A stretch of 64,000 nt of DNA from Ktedonobacterales bacterium. Lineage in GTDB: Bacteria; Chloroflexota; Ktedonobacteria; Ktedonobacterales; DATBGS01. A program made the translations under genes and the position numbers. Below, one piece after another: positions 16,502 through 26,432 of the stretch. The stretch covers positions 551 through 64,550 of the forward strand of contig DATBHW010000073.1 in NCBI GenBank assembly GCA_036557285.1. Direction: 5' to 3'. Under the pieces are notes generated by a model. It made no database searches and was not told where the DNA came from. It saw only the letters and a program-made list of their open reading frames with translations. How positions within the stretch are numbered: position 1 is the first letter of the stretch; each line of letters begins with the position of its first letter.

Positions 16502-17581
16502 CTAAGCAGCAGCGACTACGATAGGCTGTTTGACAGCAGCCCTGGAAATATTGATGGCAGCGTTGTAGTCGGCAGGCGCAGCGTACCCACACGACTGACA
16601 GACGAACTCAGCCTGGCTCTTGCGATTGGCTTTCTCGCAGTGTCCACAGACTGAGCAGGTGCGAGACGTATTGCGCGGGTCTACCAGATGGAGGCAGACG
16701 CCAGCAAGCGCGGCCTTATAGGAGAGGAAGGCACGGAGTTGGGCAAAGGACCAGGAGGCATGGCGATGACGCTGCGACCTTCTAACCGTGCTGTCCGTCC
16801 GTTGACGGATGTGTCTTAGGTCTTCAATCGCTATGCCGCGATGACTGGCCCTGGCTTTGGCAACCAGCTTTTTGCTGAGAACGTGGTTGGTGTTCGTATG
16901 AAAGCGGCGCTCTTTGCGCCGGAGGCGTTTGAGATGGCGTTTGGCCGATTTCGTACCTCGCTTTTGCAGGGCGGCCCGTAACTTCAAGAGGCGCGCTCTG
17001 GTGTGTTCCACCGCTTGCCCGCTGAAGGTGTCTCCGTCGCTGTCGGTGGCGAGGTTGACAATGCCCAGATCAACACCCAGCGTATCGGTAGGCTGCTCTG
17101 CGGGCGGCGTTGGCGCCTCCAGGGTTACGGCCAGAAAAAACACGCCGTTGCGGTAGATCAAATCAGCCTGGCCCTGGATGGCTTGCAGACGCGCCTCTTG
17201 ATACCCGCCAATGAGGAAGGGAACCAGGACACGCCCGGCGCGCGTCAAGAGCGAGACCTGATTCAGCCCCTTGAAGGACATCACCCGCTGGTCATAGACG
17301 ATGGCCCCTTCTGGGCGAAACGCGGGCTTGATGGCCTTATCGCGTTTGTAGACTTCGCTGGTCTTGCTGATGGCGCGTATCGCCAGTTGAGCGGGCAGCC
17401 TAAACTCAGCACGCAGGCGGGCATAGACGTGCTTCTGAAGTGCAAACTTGTTGGCGCTTTTCAGGGTAAATGCCTCTTCTGCTACCGCGTTGCAGGCGGC
17501 GTTAAAAGCGTGCATCACGTCCAAGAGGGCGCGATGCTGCGATGGCGCAGGGGCTAACTTCAAAAGCATGGTCTGTTTCAT
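16502..17581 (-). CDS. tnpB: TnpB (IS200/IS605-family OrfB, RuvC-like RNA-guided nuclease), apparently intact
   Basis: RuvC triad candidates LGVDLGIVN (D), GIAIEDLRHI (E) and ADYNAAINI (D). Zn ribbon CSVCGH...CQSCG. Confidence 0.9.
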   Translation of the reverse strand: MKQTMLLKLAPAPSQHRALLDVMHAFNAACNAVAEEAFTLKSANKFALQKHVYARLRAEFRLPAQLAIRAISKTSEVYKRDKAIKPAFRPEGAIVYDQRVMSFKGLNQVSLLTRAGRVLVPFLIGGYQEARLQAIQGQADLIYRNGVFFLAVTLEAPTPPAEQPTDTLGVDLGIVNLATDSDGDTFSGQAVEHTRARLLKLRAALQKRGTKSAKRHLKRLRRKERRFHTNTNHVLSKKLVAKARASHRGIAIEDLRHIRQRTDSTVRRSQRHRHASWSFAQLRAFLSYKAALAGVCLHLVDPRNTSRTCSVCGHCEKANRKSQAEFVCQSCGYAAPADYNAAINISRAAVKQPIVVAAA

Positions 17582-23753: not shown

Positions 23754-23981
23754 AGCCCTCCTAACGACGATGTAAAATGACTCAAACGCTGAGACCCGCC
23801 AGGTTGTATCTCCGCAGCGATGGCTGCCCTGATTGCTGAGCAGCCCCTCAGCAGTTCAAGTCTACCATACTAGTATCAAGAACCAGTAGTGATCTCGTGA
23901 TGATAAGGTTAAGGTACTATTATCAGGGGCCGCGTAAAACCCCGCCTTTTAAGGCTGGGGATAGAAGCGGCCACGTTCCGG

Positions 23982-24011
23982 TTGACATGAATGTATAAAC
24001 TATGATAGAAT
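23982..24011 (+). promoter_or_regulatory. Promoter inside IS element 2 driving RHH-tnpB (predicts a leaderless mRNA)
   Basis: TTGACA-N18-TAGAAT, with the -10 box ending 6 nt before ATG 24018. Confidence 0.5.
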
Positions 24012-24017
24012 ACGTAC

Positions 24018-24209
24018 ATGAAGAAATCAACCGAACCCAAGTTGCCACGCTGGACCATCACCATTTCGCCTGCCTTGATTGATGAGTTTCGTACCCTGGC
24101 CGCCGAACATAAACGGTCCTTAAACAGTGAACTGGTCTGGGCCTTAGAGCAATACGCCAAAGCTGAGCGGCGGACAGGGAAGAAGGATGCTGACCCGCAA
24201 GGCGTTTAA
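24018..24209 (+). CDS. Arc/MetJ-type ribbon-helix-helix protein encoded inside the tnpB element
   Basis: RWTITISPALIDEFRTLAAEHKRSLNSELVWALEQY fits beta-strand/helix/helix with the RS-N-E Arc signature. TTGACA-N18-TAGAAT promoter lies 6 nt upstream. The 3' end overlaps tnpB by 23 nt. Confidence 0.7.
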   Translation: MKKSTEPKLPRWTITISPALIDEFRTLAAEHKRSLNSELVWALEQYAKAERRTGKKDADPQGV

Positions 24210-25367
24210 GTATCGCCTCTCCCCGACTCGCGCTCAGGAGCGTATCTTGCTCTGGACGCTTACCCGCTGTCGAGAACTCTACAACGCCGCCCTGCAAGAG
24301 CGCCGTGATGCCTATCGTATGGGGGGCGTTTCTATCCGCGGCTTCCATCAAATCAACCAACTGCCGGAAATCAAGCAAGAGCGACCGGAATATGCCGACA
24401 TCCACAGCCAGATCTTGCAAGATGTCTTGCGTCGGGTGGATAAGGCCATGCAAGGGTTTTTTCGGCGCGTGAAGGTGGGCCAAAAGCCCGGCTATCCGCG
24501 TTTTCAGGGGCGCAACCGCTACGATAGTTTCATGTATCCCCAGGCGGGCTTTGCGCTGGCGGGCGAACGCTTGACGCTCTCCAAACTTGGAGACGTCAAG
24601 GTGCGCCTGCATCGCCCGCTAGTGGGGCAGGTAAAAACCTGCACGATCAAGCGCGAAGCCGATCAATGGTATGTCTGCTTCTCCTGTGAGGTGGAAGAAG
24701 AACCGGTGCCCGTGAGTGATGAAGCGGTTGGCCTGGATTTGGGCCTGCTGCATTTTGCCACGCTCTCCACTGGGGAAACCATCGAAAACCCGCGCCACTA
24801 CCGCAAAGGACTGAAGAAGTTAGCGCTAGCGCAGCAGAAGGTGTCCCGCTGCAAACGTGGTTCCCATCGGCGGGAACGGGCCAGGAAGGCCGTAGCGCGT
24901 GCCCATCGCAAGATTCGTAACCAGCGCCATGACTTCCTGCACAAAGCGGCGCGCTCCCTGGTCAATCGCTATGGCCTGATCGTCATGGAAGACCTGAAAA
25001 TCACGAATATGAGTGCCGCGCCCGCACCCAAGCCCGCCCCAAACCAGGACGGCGCGTATTTGCCTAACGGAGCCAGCGCCAAGGCTGGCTTGAATCTGTC
25101 GATTCTTGATGCTGGTTGGGGCCAGTTCCAAACCCTCTGTGTCGCCAAGGCTGCAAGTGCCGGACGCCTAGTAGAGTTTGTGGACCCCGCTATACAAGCC
25201 AGCGGTGTAGCCAATGCGGAGCGATTGCCAAGAAAGAGCTTTCTGAACGCTGGCATAGTTGCTCCTGTGGCTGCGAACTAGACCGCGATCACAACGCGGC
25301 GATCAACATTCTTCAGGCTGGGAAGCAGCCCACAGGTCTACGGGCCTGGAGAAGCCCCCTGCTTTAG
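24187..25367 (+). pseudogene. tnpB: TnpB (IS200/IS605 OrfB) interrupted by a 1-nt frameshift in a C4 run (25185-25188)
   Basis: Frame 1 (24187-25281) has the N-terminus MLTRKAFKYRLSPT, VGLDLG (D) and LIVMEDL (E). Frame 0 (to 25367) has PRYTSQRCSQCG...CSCGCELDRDHNAAINI (Zn ribbon plus the third Asp). Confidence 0.8.
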
Positions 25368-25481
25368 CAGTGGGGTACTTCACATACATCTCATGAAAGA
25401 AGGGATGGCACAGCCGTTGCAGAGCCATGAGCGGACTGTAGGATGCCGCTCTTCCCAAAGGCTGAGCGTAGAGGAGAACAC

Positions 25482-26432
25482 ATGAGCGCAGAGATGATTG
25501 GGCTTTGGATCGGCTTTAATCTGGCGGTGCTGGCTCTGCTGGCGCTGGACCTGGGGGTGTTTAATCGCCAGGCGCACGAGGTTTCTCTGCGCGAAGCCGC
25601 GATCTGGAGCGCCGTGTGGGTGGGGCTTTCACTGCTCTTTAATCTCTTTATCTTCTTCTGGCGAGGGACCGACACCGGCCTCGATTTTCTAACCGCCTAT
25701 CTGATCGAGAAGTCGCTCAGCGTTGATAATATCTTTGTGTTTGTCTTGATCTTTTCGGCCTTTAGCGTGCCTGCCAGGTATCAGCATCGCGTCCTCTTCT
25801 GGGGGGTGCTGGGCGCGATTGTGATGCGCGGCCTGCTGATTCTGGCGGGTACGACATTGATCGCCCTCTTTCACTGGCTGCTCTACGTATTTGGCGCGTT
25901 CCTGATTCTGACGGGCATTCGGCTGGCCTGGCGGCAAGAGCAGCAGATGCACCCTGATAAGCATCCGCTGGTGCGGCTGGCCCGGCGCTTCGTGCCTGTG
26001 ACCGCCGATTTTGAGGGGCCGCACTTTTTTGCGCGCAAAGAGGGGCGTCTCTTCATCACGCCGCTGCTGCTGGTGCTGCTGGTGGTGGAGAGCGCCGATC
26101 TGCTCTTTGCGCTCGATTCTATTCCGGCGGTCTTTGCCATCACGCTTGATCCGTTTATTGTCTATACCTCCAATGTCTGCGCGATCCTGGGGCTGCGCGC
26201 GCTCTATTTCCTGCTGGCCGATCTGGTGGAGCGTTTCCACTACCTCAAGTTCGGGCTGGCGGTGATTCTGACGCTGGTCGGCTTCAAGCTGCTGCTGGCC
26301 GACCTCTATCACATTCCCATTGGCATCTCGCTGGGAGCGATTGCTCTCGTCCTCACGGCTGCTGTTATAGCTTCGCTCCTGCGCCCGCCAAAAAAGCCAG
26401 CGCGCGAAGCAGAAAAGAAGGCGCCGGTCTAA
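25482..26432 (+). CDS. TerC/Alx-family integral membrane protein
   Basis: YLIEKSLSVDNIFVF and ADLLFALDSIPAV repeats. GAGGAG SD upstream of ATG 25482. Confidence 0.85.
   Translation: MSAEMIGLWIGFNLAVLALLALDLGVFNRQAHEVSLREAAIWSAVWVGLSLLFNLFIFFWRGTDTGLDFLTAYLIEKSLSVDNIFVFVLIFSAFSVPARYQHRVLFWGVLGAIVMRGLLILAGTTLIALFHWLLYVFGAFLILTGIRLAWRQEQQMHPDKHPLVRLARRFVPVTADFEGPHFFARKEGRLFITPLLLVLLVVESADLLFALDSIPAVFAITLDPFIVYTSNVCAILGLRALYFLLADLVERFHYLKFGLAVILTLVGFKLLLADLYHIPIGISLGAIALVLTAAVIASLLRPPKKPAREAEKKAPV

Follow-up and report, generated by a model that had tools for sequence, protein, structure and literature searches.

An Arc-type ribbon-helix-helix gene beside tnpB in a family of IS200/IS605-type elements from Ktedonobacterales, one copy of which carries a frameshift

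The element, its RHH gene and its relatives

An IS200/IS605-type element of 1,460 bp lies at positions 23924-25383 of a 64,000-nucleotide stretch of DNA from a Ktedonobacterales (Chloroflexota) genome (contig DATBHW010000073.1, GenBank assembly GCA_036557285.1); the whole of this stretch is referred to as the window. The element has no tnpA. From its left end (LE) to its right end (RE) it contains a subterminal hairpin, a promoter, a gene for a 63-residue Arc-type ribbon-helix-helix (RHH) protein, an overlapping tnpB that is broken by a frameshift, and three further hairpins (Table 1). An earlier annotation of the window made from the letters alone (the sequence-only reading) had proposed an IS200/IS605-type element at 23905-25385, with an RHH gene between the left end and tnpB in place of tnpA. 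The type and the gene order stand, and the extent was refined by comparison with ten or more relatives. What that reading observed in the sequence was confirmed throughout, and its interpretation was supported in part.

The 63-residue open reading frame (ORF) is a genuine Arc-type RHH gene and is under strong purifying selection. The ratio of nonsynonymous to synonymous substitution rates (dN/dS, Nei-Gojobori), determined over 40 ungapped codons in 41 pairs, had a median of 0.11 (range 0.02-0.2) and was 0.02-0.05 for the closest pairs; synonymous sites were near saturation. The Pfam Arc model scored 19.2 bits against the window protein (E=1e-3; cutoff 20.4) and 22.8, above the cutoff, against that of the relative L026. 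AlphaFold2, run with the family alignment, gave a model with a predicted local distance difference test score (pLDDT) of 80, consisting of an extended segment (residues 11-17) and two helices (18-31 and 35-57). The 12 best Foldseek matches in the PDB were Arc, CopG and AmrZ (probabilities 0.98-1.0), and a profile of the family, searched against PDB sequences, matched AmrZ (E=4e-4) and, more weakly, Arc and CopG. The fold named in the sequence-only reading was thus recovered by structure prediction as well as by profile search. Homologues of the protein (48-75 residues) form 54 clusters in the protein database. One of them, annotated as hypothetical in a Ktedonobacterales metagenome-assembled genome (MAG; locus tag VH599_20095), has the sequence of the window protein with 100% identity.

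The RHH-tnpB pair is a conserved module of one transposon family, seen only in genomes of Ktedonobacterales and in metagenome contigs whose origin is unassigned. When one genome per species was scanned with the RHH protein, five loci were found, all in Ktedonobacterales MAGs, and at 5/5 the RHH gene was followed by an overlapping, intact, single-frame tnpB. A metagenome scan with the family alignment yielded 48 loci. Every relative with at least 57% identity whose contig reaches past the RHH gene has tnpB downstream (the contig of L018 stops at the RHH gene), and the same holds for a branch of 44% identity (L026/L027; hhalign probability 98%). The overlapping pair was present in every fetched context that reaches far enough, including L010-L015 and L072-L081. 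The overlap itself, 23 nucleotides in the window as noted in the sequence-only reading, is kept in all 16 related loci examined, so that the 63-residue ORF is indeed conserved beside homologous tnpB genes. The neighbouring genes are different at every locus, and there is no conserved association with a host gene across the relatives. Within one genome, too, the elements occupy different sites (L010/L011; the window copy and L072, which belong to the same MAG). These different sites, together with element-only contigs that end at the element boundary, indicate that the family is mobile.

The ends of the element were located by alignment with these relatives. In the 5' regions, homology begins at TTATCAGGGGCC. 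The tetranucleotide TTAT stands directly 5' of the left end in nearly all related loci, and the sequence farther upstream is divergent. TTAT is also common to a sister clade, although the bases that follow it differ there, and element-only Logan contigs of one relative start exactly at TTAT plus the left end (TTATCAAGGGCC). On these grounds TTAT is taken as the target, and the left end as starting at position 23924; by analogy with related elements, TTAT would act as the transposon-adjacent motif (TAM). As single-stranded DNA the left end is predicted to fold into its hairpin with −15.7 kcal/mol (z = −3.0), and comparison of the loci reveals compensatory changes in the inner stem, CCCCxxxx-TTTA-xxxx(N)GGGG. 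The right end finishes with ...GGGGTACTTCAC at 25383, which is conserved in the relatives as GGGGTACTTCA(C); immediately past it the flanks diverge between loci. The last RE hairpin has the same CCCC...TTTA...GGGG form as the LE hairpin. RNAalifold, applied to nine loci, predicted 36 pairs, of which 7 show compensatory double changes, mostly in the three hairpins of the last 70 nucleotides. These hairpins are a plausible scaffold of a predicted omega-RNA, judged by the conserved pairing; a search for omega-RNA or other Rfam families gave no match, at the gathering threshold for the whole window and at an E-value threshold for the element. Overall, the element has the features of IS200/IS605, that is, subterminal, imperfect hairpins at both ends, no terminal inverted repeats, and a fixed 5' target with unrelated flanks, as expected for insertion 3' of a short target that is not duplicated.

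No Y1/HUH transposase ORF was found in the window or in about 80 loci with a crude regular-expression motif scan, which is a weak negative, and the element is too small to house tnpA. Because a Y1 TnpA was seen neither in the element nor in the window or the fetched loci, the element is regarded as non-autonomous and IS1341-like. A search for an empty site or other alleles via the exact TerC protein returned only contigs that carry the insertion, with the same frameshift, wherever they span the site. A distant DNA search of the PLSDB plasmids yielded nothing but short tnpB matches of 66-71% identity, most of them in Actinobacteria; a related element was not among them.

Table 1. Positions of the features of the element in the window.
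Feature	Position	Strand	Details
Target tetranucleotide TTAT (predicted TAM)	23920-23923	+	just outside the left end
Left end	23924-24017	+	nested bulged subterminal hairpin 23926-23974, then promoter
Sigma-70-type promoter	23982-24011	+	TTGACA 23982-23987, N18, TG-n-TAGAAT 24006-24011
Candidate operator box 1	23991-23996	+	ATGTAT (ACGTAT in most relatives); between −35 and −10
Candidate operator box 2	24012-24017	+	ACGTAC; between −10 hexamer and ATG, at the predicted transcription start
Arc-type RHH gene, 63 residues	24018-24209	+	dN/dS, AlphaFold2 model, Foldseek, profile search
tnpB ORF, 364 residues	24187-25281	+	ORF call; 23-nucleotide overlap with the RHH gene
tnpB, in-frame part (residues 1-334)	24187-25188	+	HTH_OrfB_IS605, OrfB_IS605; RuvC-I D184 (24736), RuvC-II E268 (24988)
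C4 run	25185-25188	+	1-nucleotide deletion relative to C5 (GAC CCC CGC) of the relatives; shifts the tnpB frame
tnpB, 3' part, out of frame	25189-25367	+	zinc ribbon 25206-25274; RuvC-III DRDHNAA 25281-25301; original stop 25365-25367
Right end and 3' part of predicted omega-RNA scaffold	25316-25383	+	three hairpins; element ends at 25383
Right-end hairpins	25316-25330, 25332-25349, 25351-25381	+	RNAalifold; the last is the RE hairpin
Flank that the omega-RNA would carry as guide	25384-25403	+	ATACATCTCATGAAAGAAGG; from the TnpB/omega-RNA architecture

Several loci related to the element differ from it in their composition. In a sister clade with TnpB of 65% identity (L070 2390-2660 and L071 2353-2514), TTAT, the LE hairpin, the layout of −10 hexamer, six nucleotides and ATG, and the RE are the same, and the slot of the RHH gene is taken by another conserved ORF of 53 residues (MDTNTYRTTRIWERT...; 14 clusters, Ktedonobacteraceae). 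This ORF had no Pfam or PDB match and gave an hhalign probability of 0.3% against the RHH family; its AlphaFold2 model (pLDDT 77) has two long helices and no fold match. The tnpB of L064-L069 (2501-3667 in L064) encodes a protein 68% identical to that of the window and keeps the RE hairpin, with no LE, promoter or RHH gene. On 18 contigs, drawn from several assemblies, it occupies the same position, with a ferredoxin gene on one side and a gene for a 2-oxoacid dehydrogenase E1 on the other, and it may be an immobilised copy. An RHH protein with 61% identity over 40 residues to that of the element is encoded in L020-L023 (2363-2653), outside any tnpB context and beside an unrelated ORF of 308 residues; it could be a relative that belongs to the host, or a copy that was domesticated. 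Finally, an RHH-tnpB element is found in the CysS-TatD intergenic neighbourhood of two genomes that are ~78% identical in nucleotide sequence (L012 2907-4241 and L072 2402-3866). The two insertions are slightly shifted: a 44-nucleotide segment that precedes the element in one of the genomes follows it in the other. The L012 copy is degenerate.

In the window, a gene for a TerC-family membrane protein follows ~60-100 nucleotides downstream of the element in the same orientation (25384-25482). No riboswitch or terminator was detected between the two, and read-through from the strong promoter of the element could reach this gene. A second tnpB (16502-17581, − strand, 359 residues), apparently intact, is unrelated to the element: its product has ~30% identity to the element TnpB over 243 residues, and no RHH-like ORF was seen upstream of it.

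The frameshift in tnpB

The tnpB ORF of the window was matched by guided_TnpB (3e-74) and by HTH_OrfB_IS605 and OrfB_IS605 in the Pfam/NCBIfam searches. A tail ORF in the next frame, which ends at 25367 and carries the sequence ...RYTSQRCSQCG..., was matched by Cas12f1-like_TNB (1e-13). Insertion of one C at the C4 run yields a TnpB of 393 residues that aligns end to end with the intact relatives. In agreement with the sequence-only reading, which had placed the break at this run, the 364-residue product still contains D184 and E268 but lacks the CxxC...CxxC zinc ribbon and the RuvC-III motif DRDHNAA; it also acquires 30 unrelated residues.

The frameshift is real and not a sequencing error. 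The locus, with the element between a phosphoesterase gene and the TerC gene, was recovered from five samples, each assembled independently (JGI 3300037153 and 3300036826; Logan SRR11613358, SRR11613032 and SRR11614855), all of which read GTGGACCCCGCT, that is, C4; one of the five has a single-nucleotide polymorphism (SNP) elsewhere in the element. The relatives L011, L072 and L073 read GTGGACCCCCGC and keep C5, so it is the window copy that has lost one C. One way of refuting the sequence-only reading that it had named itself, an error at this run, thereby falls away, but the deletion points to a pseudogene. It was also considered whether the C run might cause transcriptional slippage or programmed frameshifting. 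This is unlikely: the run is only 4 nucleotides long, the relatives are single-frame, and there are no conserved signs of recoding.

These data also bear on an explanation to which we give practically no credence: that the 63-residue ORF arose by chance within the left end and that the frameshift reflects an error of sequencing or assembly. The shortness of the ORF and its sub-threshold Pfam score would suit it. However, dN/dS of ~0.1 with saturated dS removes the chance-ORF part, as do the constant length over 54 clusters and the RHH fold, and C4 in five assemblies, one of them distinguished by its SNP, contradicts the error.

The lesion is fixed in the population, and it is recent. Of ~8,000 TnpB homologues found at E<1e-30, the best 120 were checked for the TNB domain, and the window protein (P0061) was the only one without it. 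Relative to L001, 8 of ~60 residues of the out-of-frame tail differ, which is the same level as in the rest of the protein; because the tail is as conserved as the rest of the gene, the deletion must have occurred recently. Other copies have decayed differently: L019 has a frameshift, and L012 has an N-terminal deletion together with C-to-W and D-to-G changes. Overall, the window tnpB is a recent pseudogene that arose by ordinary pseudogenisation, in a decaying copy whose RHH gene and promoter are intact.

The sequence-only reading had drawn, as speculation, a parallel between the truncated TnpB and the nuclease-dead TnpB-derived regulators (TldR). In that case the 364-residue protein would be a functional RNA-guided DNA-binding regulator without nuclease activity and the RHH protein its partner. 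The truncation indeed keeps the RuvC-I and RuvC-II residues while removing the zinc ribbon and RuvC-III, and the lesion is fixed; nevertheless we judge such a function highly improbable. The lesion is a single base, and the out-of-frame tail still encodes a fully conserved zinc ribbon and DRDHNAA, which marks a recent event. Among the best 120 TnpB relatives the truncated form occurs at the window locus only, beside C5 relatives and copies that decayed in other ways. The LE, RE and TTAT are intact, and the frameshift adds 30 unrelated residues to the protein. Moreover, the guide would be the adjacent flank (ATACATCTCATGAAAGAAGG), for which no second match exists within the 64-kb window, and no host gene is consistently associated with the family. 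The parallel with TldR was therefore abandoned.

Two arrangements of the tnpB start were observed in the element family. Elements with a 63-residue RHH protein have the tnpB ATG inside GAT-GCT-GAC, giving the 23-nucleotide overlap (an example lies within window 24150-24209). Elements with a 60-residue RHH protein (for example L002 4130-4183) lack this ATG; there the predicted tnpB start is an upstream ATG in the invariant E-Q-Y-A-K codons, which gives an overlap of 47 nucleotides and 11-12 extra N-terminal TnpB residues. In the window copy, this upstream tnpB ATG is mutated to ACG.

[quoted passage not shown]

The promoter of the RHH gene matched the consensus in 11/12 positions in a promoter scan and has an extended −10 element (TG). 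The gap between the −10 hexamer and the ATG is only six nucleotides (ACGTAC), and a Shine-Dalgarno sequence is absent. TTGAC, the −10 hexamer and the 6-nucleotide gap are kept in 16/16 distinct related promoter regions. Since this conserved promoter abuts the ATG, the RHH mRNA is probably leaderless, as the sequence-only reading had predicted from the same TTGACA-N18-TAGAAT promoter.

The hexamer in the gap (box 2) recurs 21-23 bp upstream in every locus as box 1. Direct similarity between the two is highest at an offset of 21 (3.2/6 matches; background ~1.4). Both boxes vary with the class of the RHH beta-strand, whose residues are the DNA-reading residues of the fold. In the class RWTITV/I (9 loci), box 1 is ACGTAT-like and box 2 is ACGTAC, invariant in all 9. 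In the class RWMLYL (2 loci), box 1 is ACTGGT or ACTAGC and box 2 is ACTAGT or ACCAGT. The class RWT(L/I)Y (3 loci) has AyGTry variants in both places (box 2 ATGTGT or ATGTAC), and the L025-L027 branch (3 loci) has GCACGC-type sequences as box 1 and GCGTGT-type sequences as box 2. This co-variation suggests that the boxes are operators, and it leads us to predict that the RHH protein forms homodimers that bind DNA sequence-specifically. The −10 hexamer is further overlapped by a 7-bp inverted repeat (ATyCTAT-G-ATAGrAT), in which L016 shows one compensatory change (TAGGAT with ATCCTAT).

We consider it likely that the elements constitute a Ktedonobacterales-specific, non-autonomous IS200/IS605 family in which the RHH protein autorepresses the left-end promoter, and that the window copy is a decaying member. 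A member of this family would comprise the LE hairpin, a strong promoter, a leaderless arc-like RHH gene, the overlapping tnpB, and the omega-RNA/RE hairpins. A dimer of the RHH protein (or a dimer of dimers) would bind the two 6-bp boxes, ACGTAy, that flank the −10 hexamer ~21 bp apart, and would thereby shut off the single promoter of the RHH gene, tnpB and the omega-RNA. In this way the nuclease of the element would be held at a low, self-limiting level. The data establish which genes the element contains, where it ends, that the pair is conserved, that the RHH gene is under purifying selection and has the RHH fold, and that the frameshift is real and unique; we infer the leaderless start, the identity of the operators, the repression and the expression of an omega-RNA. 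Repression of the element's own promoter was one of the roles offered in the sequence-only reading, and it fits both the candidate operator boxes and the experiments on other IS605 Arc proteins that are described in the last section.

Repression could also act in trans, on further copies that share the boxes. The MAG of the window (VH599 locus tags) contains such a copy, L072 (2501-3839), with an intact tnpB of 400 residues and the boxes ACGTAT and ACGTAC; because the promoter boxes are the same, trans-repression between it and the window copy is plausible. In principle, copies with a dead tnpB might then serve as repressor-only 'immunity' loci, whose RHH gene stays intact and expressed and whose RHH protein acts in trans on ACGTAy copies such as L072 and sets a family-wide ceiling on TnpB and omega-RNA, the beta-strand/operator classes (TITV, MLYL, TLYAD) being mutually blind incompatibility groups. 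We put this forward as a speculation that is unlikely to hold.

Some observations weigh against repression as the RHH protein's function, or against the family as we describe it. The Pfam Arc score of the window protein itself falls just short of the gathering threshold. The operator assignment draws on few lineages, with only about four beta-strand classes that are independent, and sequences that are related do not count as separate observations. The crude motif scan revealed no cognate Y1 TnpA, which leaves the movement of the family without a visible transposase. For the Ktedonobacterales family, binding and expression of the RHH protein are predictions from sequence. Lastly, distant RHH matches occur in other contexts, and the nearest relatives outside the elements are antitoxin-like, several of them next to PIN-type genes (L040, L044, L051, L063), which leaves room for a protein-protein role.

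In such a role the RHH protein would inhibit TnpB in the manner of an antitoxin: it would bind TnpB, or TnpB in complex with the omega-RNA, and prevent cleavage, and the pair would form a toxin-antitoxin-like module. We regard this as unlikely. It would agree with the PIN-like neighbours, with the overlap of the RHH gene and tnpB, which is like that of toxin-antitoxin pairs, and with the proposal made for an archaeal RHH/MazE-TnpB clade (Altae-Tran et al. 2023, PMC10691335). However, TnpB of the present family has the canonical D-E-D and DRDHNAA in place of the D-to-H site of that clade, and the family is bacterial and mobile rather than immobilised. In addition, the RHH protein is only 59-64 residues long, and its C-terminal tail is short, variable and modelled with low confidence (pLDDT ~42-61). 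This tail probably differs from the extension with which VapB/FitA-type antitoxins bind their toxins at the C terminus. The antitoxin-like and repressor roles are not mutually exclusive, and a direct contact of the RHH protein with TnpB, in addition to repression, is a less likely extension of the speculation on repressor-only loci.

RHH proteins such as TraY and NikA assist HUH relaxases at oriT. By analogy, the RHH protein might be an accessory factor of transposition that binds near the LE hairpin and helps a trans-acting HUH (Y1) TnpA. The location of its gene at the left end of elements that lack tnpA, and so need mobilisation in trans, is consistent with this, and NikA is among the weaker fold matches (Foldseek rank 32). 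Yet the conserved repeated boxes are on the promoter and not on the hairpin, and the IS605 Arc proteins that have been tested bind promoters (doi 10.64898/2026.09.24.754181), which makes this role very unlikely. Autorepression of the left-end promoter accommodates the position of the boxes and is retained as the favoured reading.

Comparison with known RHH-TnpB systems

The sequence-only reading was not aware of a described RHH-TnpB module; on this point the literature does not bear it out. In 2023, Zedaveinyte et al. (doi 10.1101/2023.11.20.567912) reported Arc-like RHH ORFs that accompany TnpB in IS605/IS607 IStrons as well as IS elements. In the same year the archaeal RHH/MazE-TnpB clade was described and read as a toxin-antitoxin pair (Altae-Tran et al., PNAS 2023, PMC10691335). 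According to a recent preprint (Moon, Zedaveinyte, Wiegand & Sternberg, bioRxiv Sept 2026, doi 10.64898/2026.09.24.754181), the IS605-encoded Arc is a promoter-binding repressor, and elements with arc and tnpB only are included. There, chromatin immunoprecipitation sequencing (ChIP-seq) gave peaks on the element promoter, red fluorescent protein (RFP) expression was repressed in a promoter-specific manner, and repression was lost when the beta-strand residues or the site were mutated; those named among the tested elements were clostridial (Petroclostridium xylanilyticum and Clostridium botulinum). Ktedonobacteria or Chloroflexota are not mentioned in the context of RHH-TnpB in these three sources (Zedaveinyte 2023, Altae-Tran 2023, Moon 2026). 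The window element is thus an added member of published RHH-TnpB modules and not a new system, and it extends the Arc-TnpB transposon module to Chloroflexota.

For annotation, the 63-residue gene is real and the 364-residue 'transposase' is a pseudogene fragment. The family represents a compact variant with a single, predicted leaderless promoter, co-directional overlapping genes and no tnpA. Its natural specificity classes, defined by the RHH beta-strand and the boxes, offer a convenient system for the study of recognition by transposon-encoded repressors and of cross-regulation between copies. The most useful lead is the co-variation of beta-strand and promoter boxes, together with possible trans-repression by copies with a dead tnpB.

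Compared by layout and description, the elements of Moon et al. resemble the present family in having a small RHH gene within the element boundaries beside tnpB, in including arc+tnpB-only forms, and in that the predicted sites overlap the element promoter, with repression of tnpB and autoregulation as the proposed outcome. In many elements of their clade, arc and tnpA are divergent from tnpB and share a bidirectional promoter with it. The window family differs in its Ktedonobacterales host, in the co-directional and overlapping arc and tnpB genes, in the one LE promoter that abuts the ATG and is predicted to give a leaderless mRNA, and in the lack of tnpA in any copy examined.

The archaeal RHH/MazE-TnpB clade likewise has the RHH gene directly upstream of tnpB and a 3' region that could specify a guide RNA. 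Its members are non-mobile, with a rearranged RuvC-III (D to H) and a proposed toxin-antitoxin function, whereas the window family is bacterial and mobile, and its intact members have the canonical D-E-D.

TldR proteins (Wiegand et al., Nature 2024) share with the window protein a TnpB without a complete RuvC site. They are reportedly conserved and no longer mobile, show linkage to fliC or opp genes, and are directed by their guides to promoters of the host, whereas the window protein was truncated recently by the loss of a single base, which is unique to this copy, and the transposon around it is otherwise intact. Like the IS1341-type (tnpB-only) elements, the family lacks tnpA, has a bulged subterminal hairpin at each end, inserts 3' of a fixed tetranucleotide, and has a predicted omega-RNA at the 3' end of tnpB; it differs by the addition of a conserved regulatory gene between the LE and tnpB. 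Overall, the differences between the window family and the published modules are differences of layout and not of kind.

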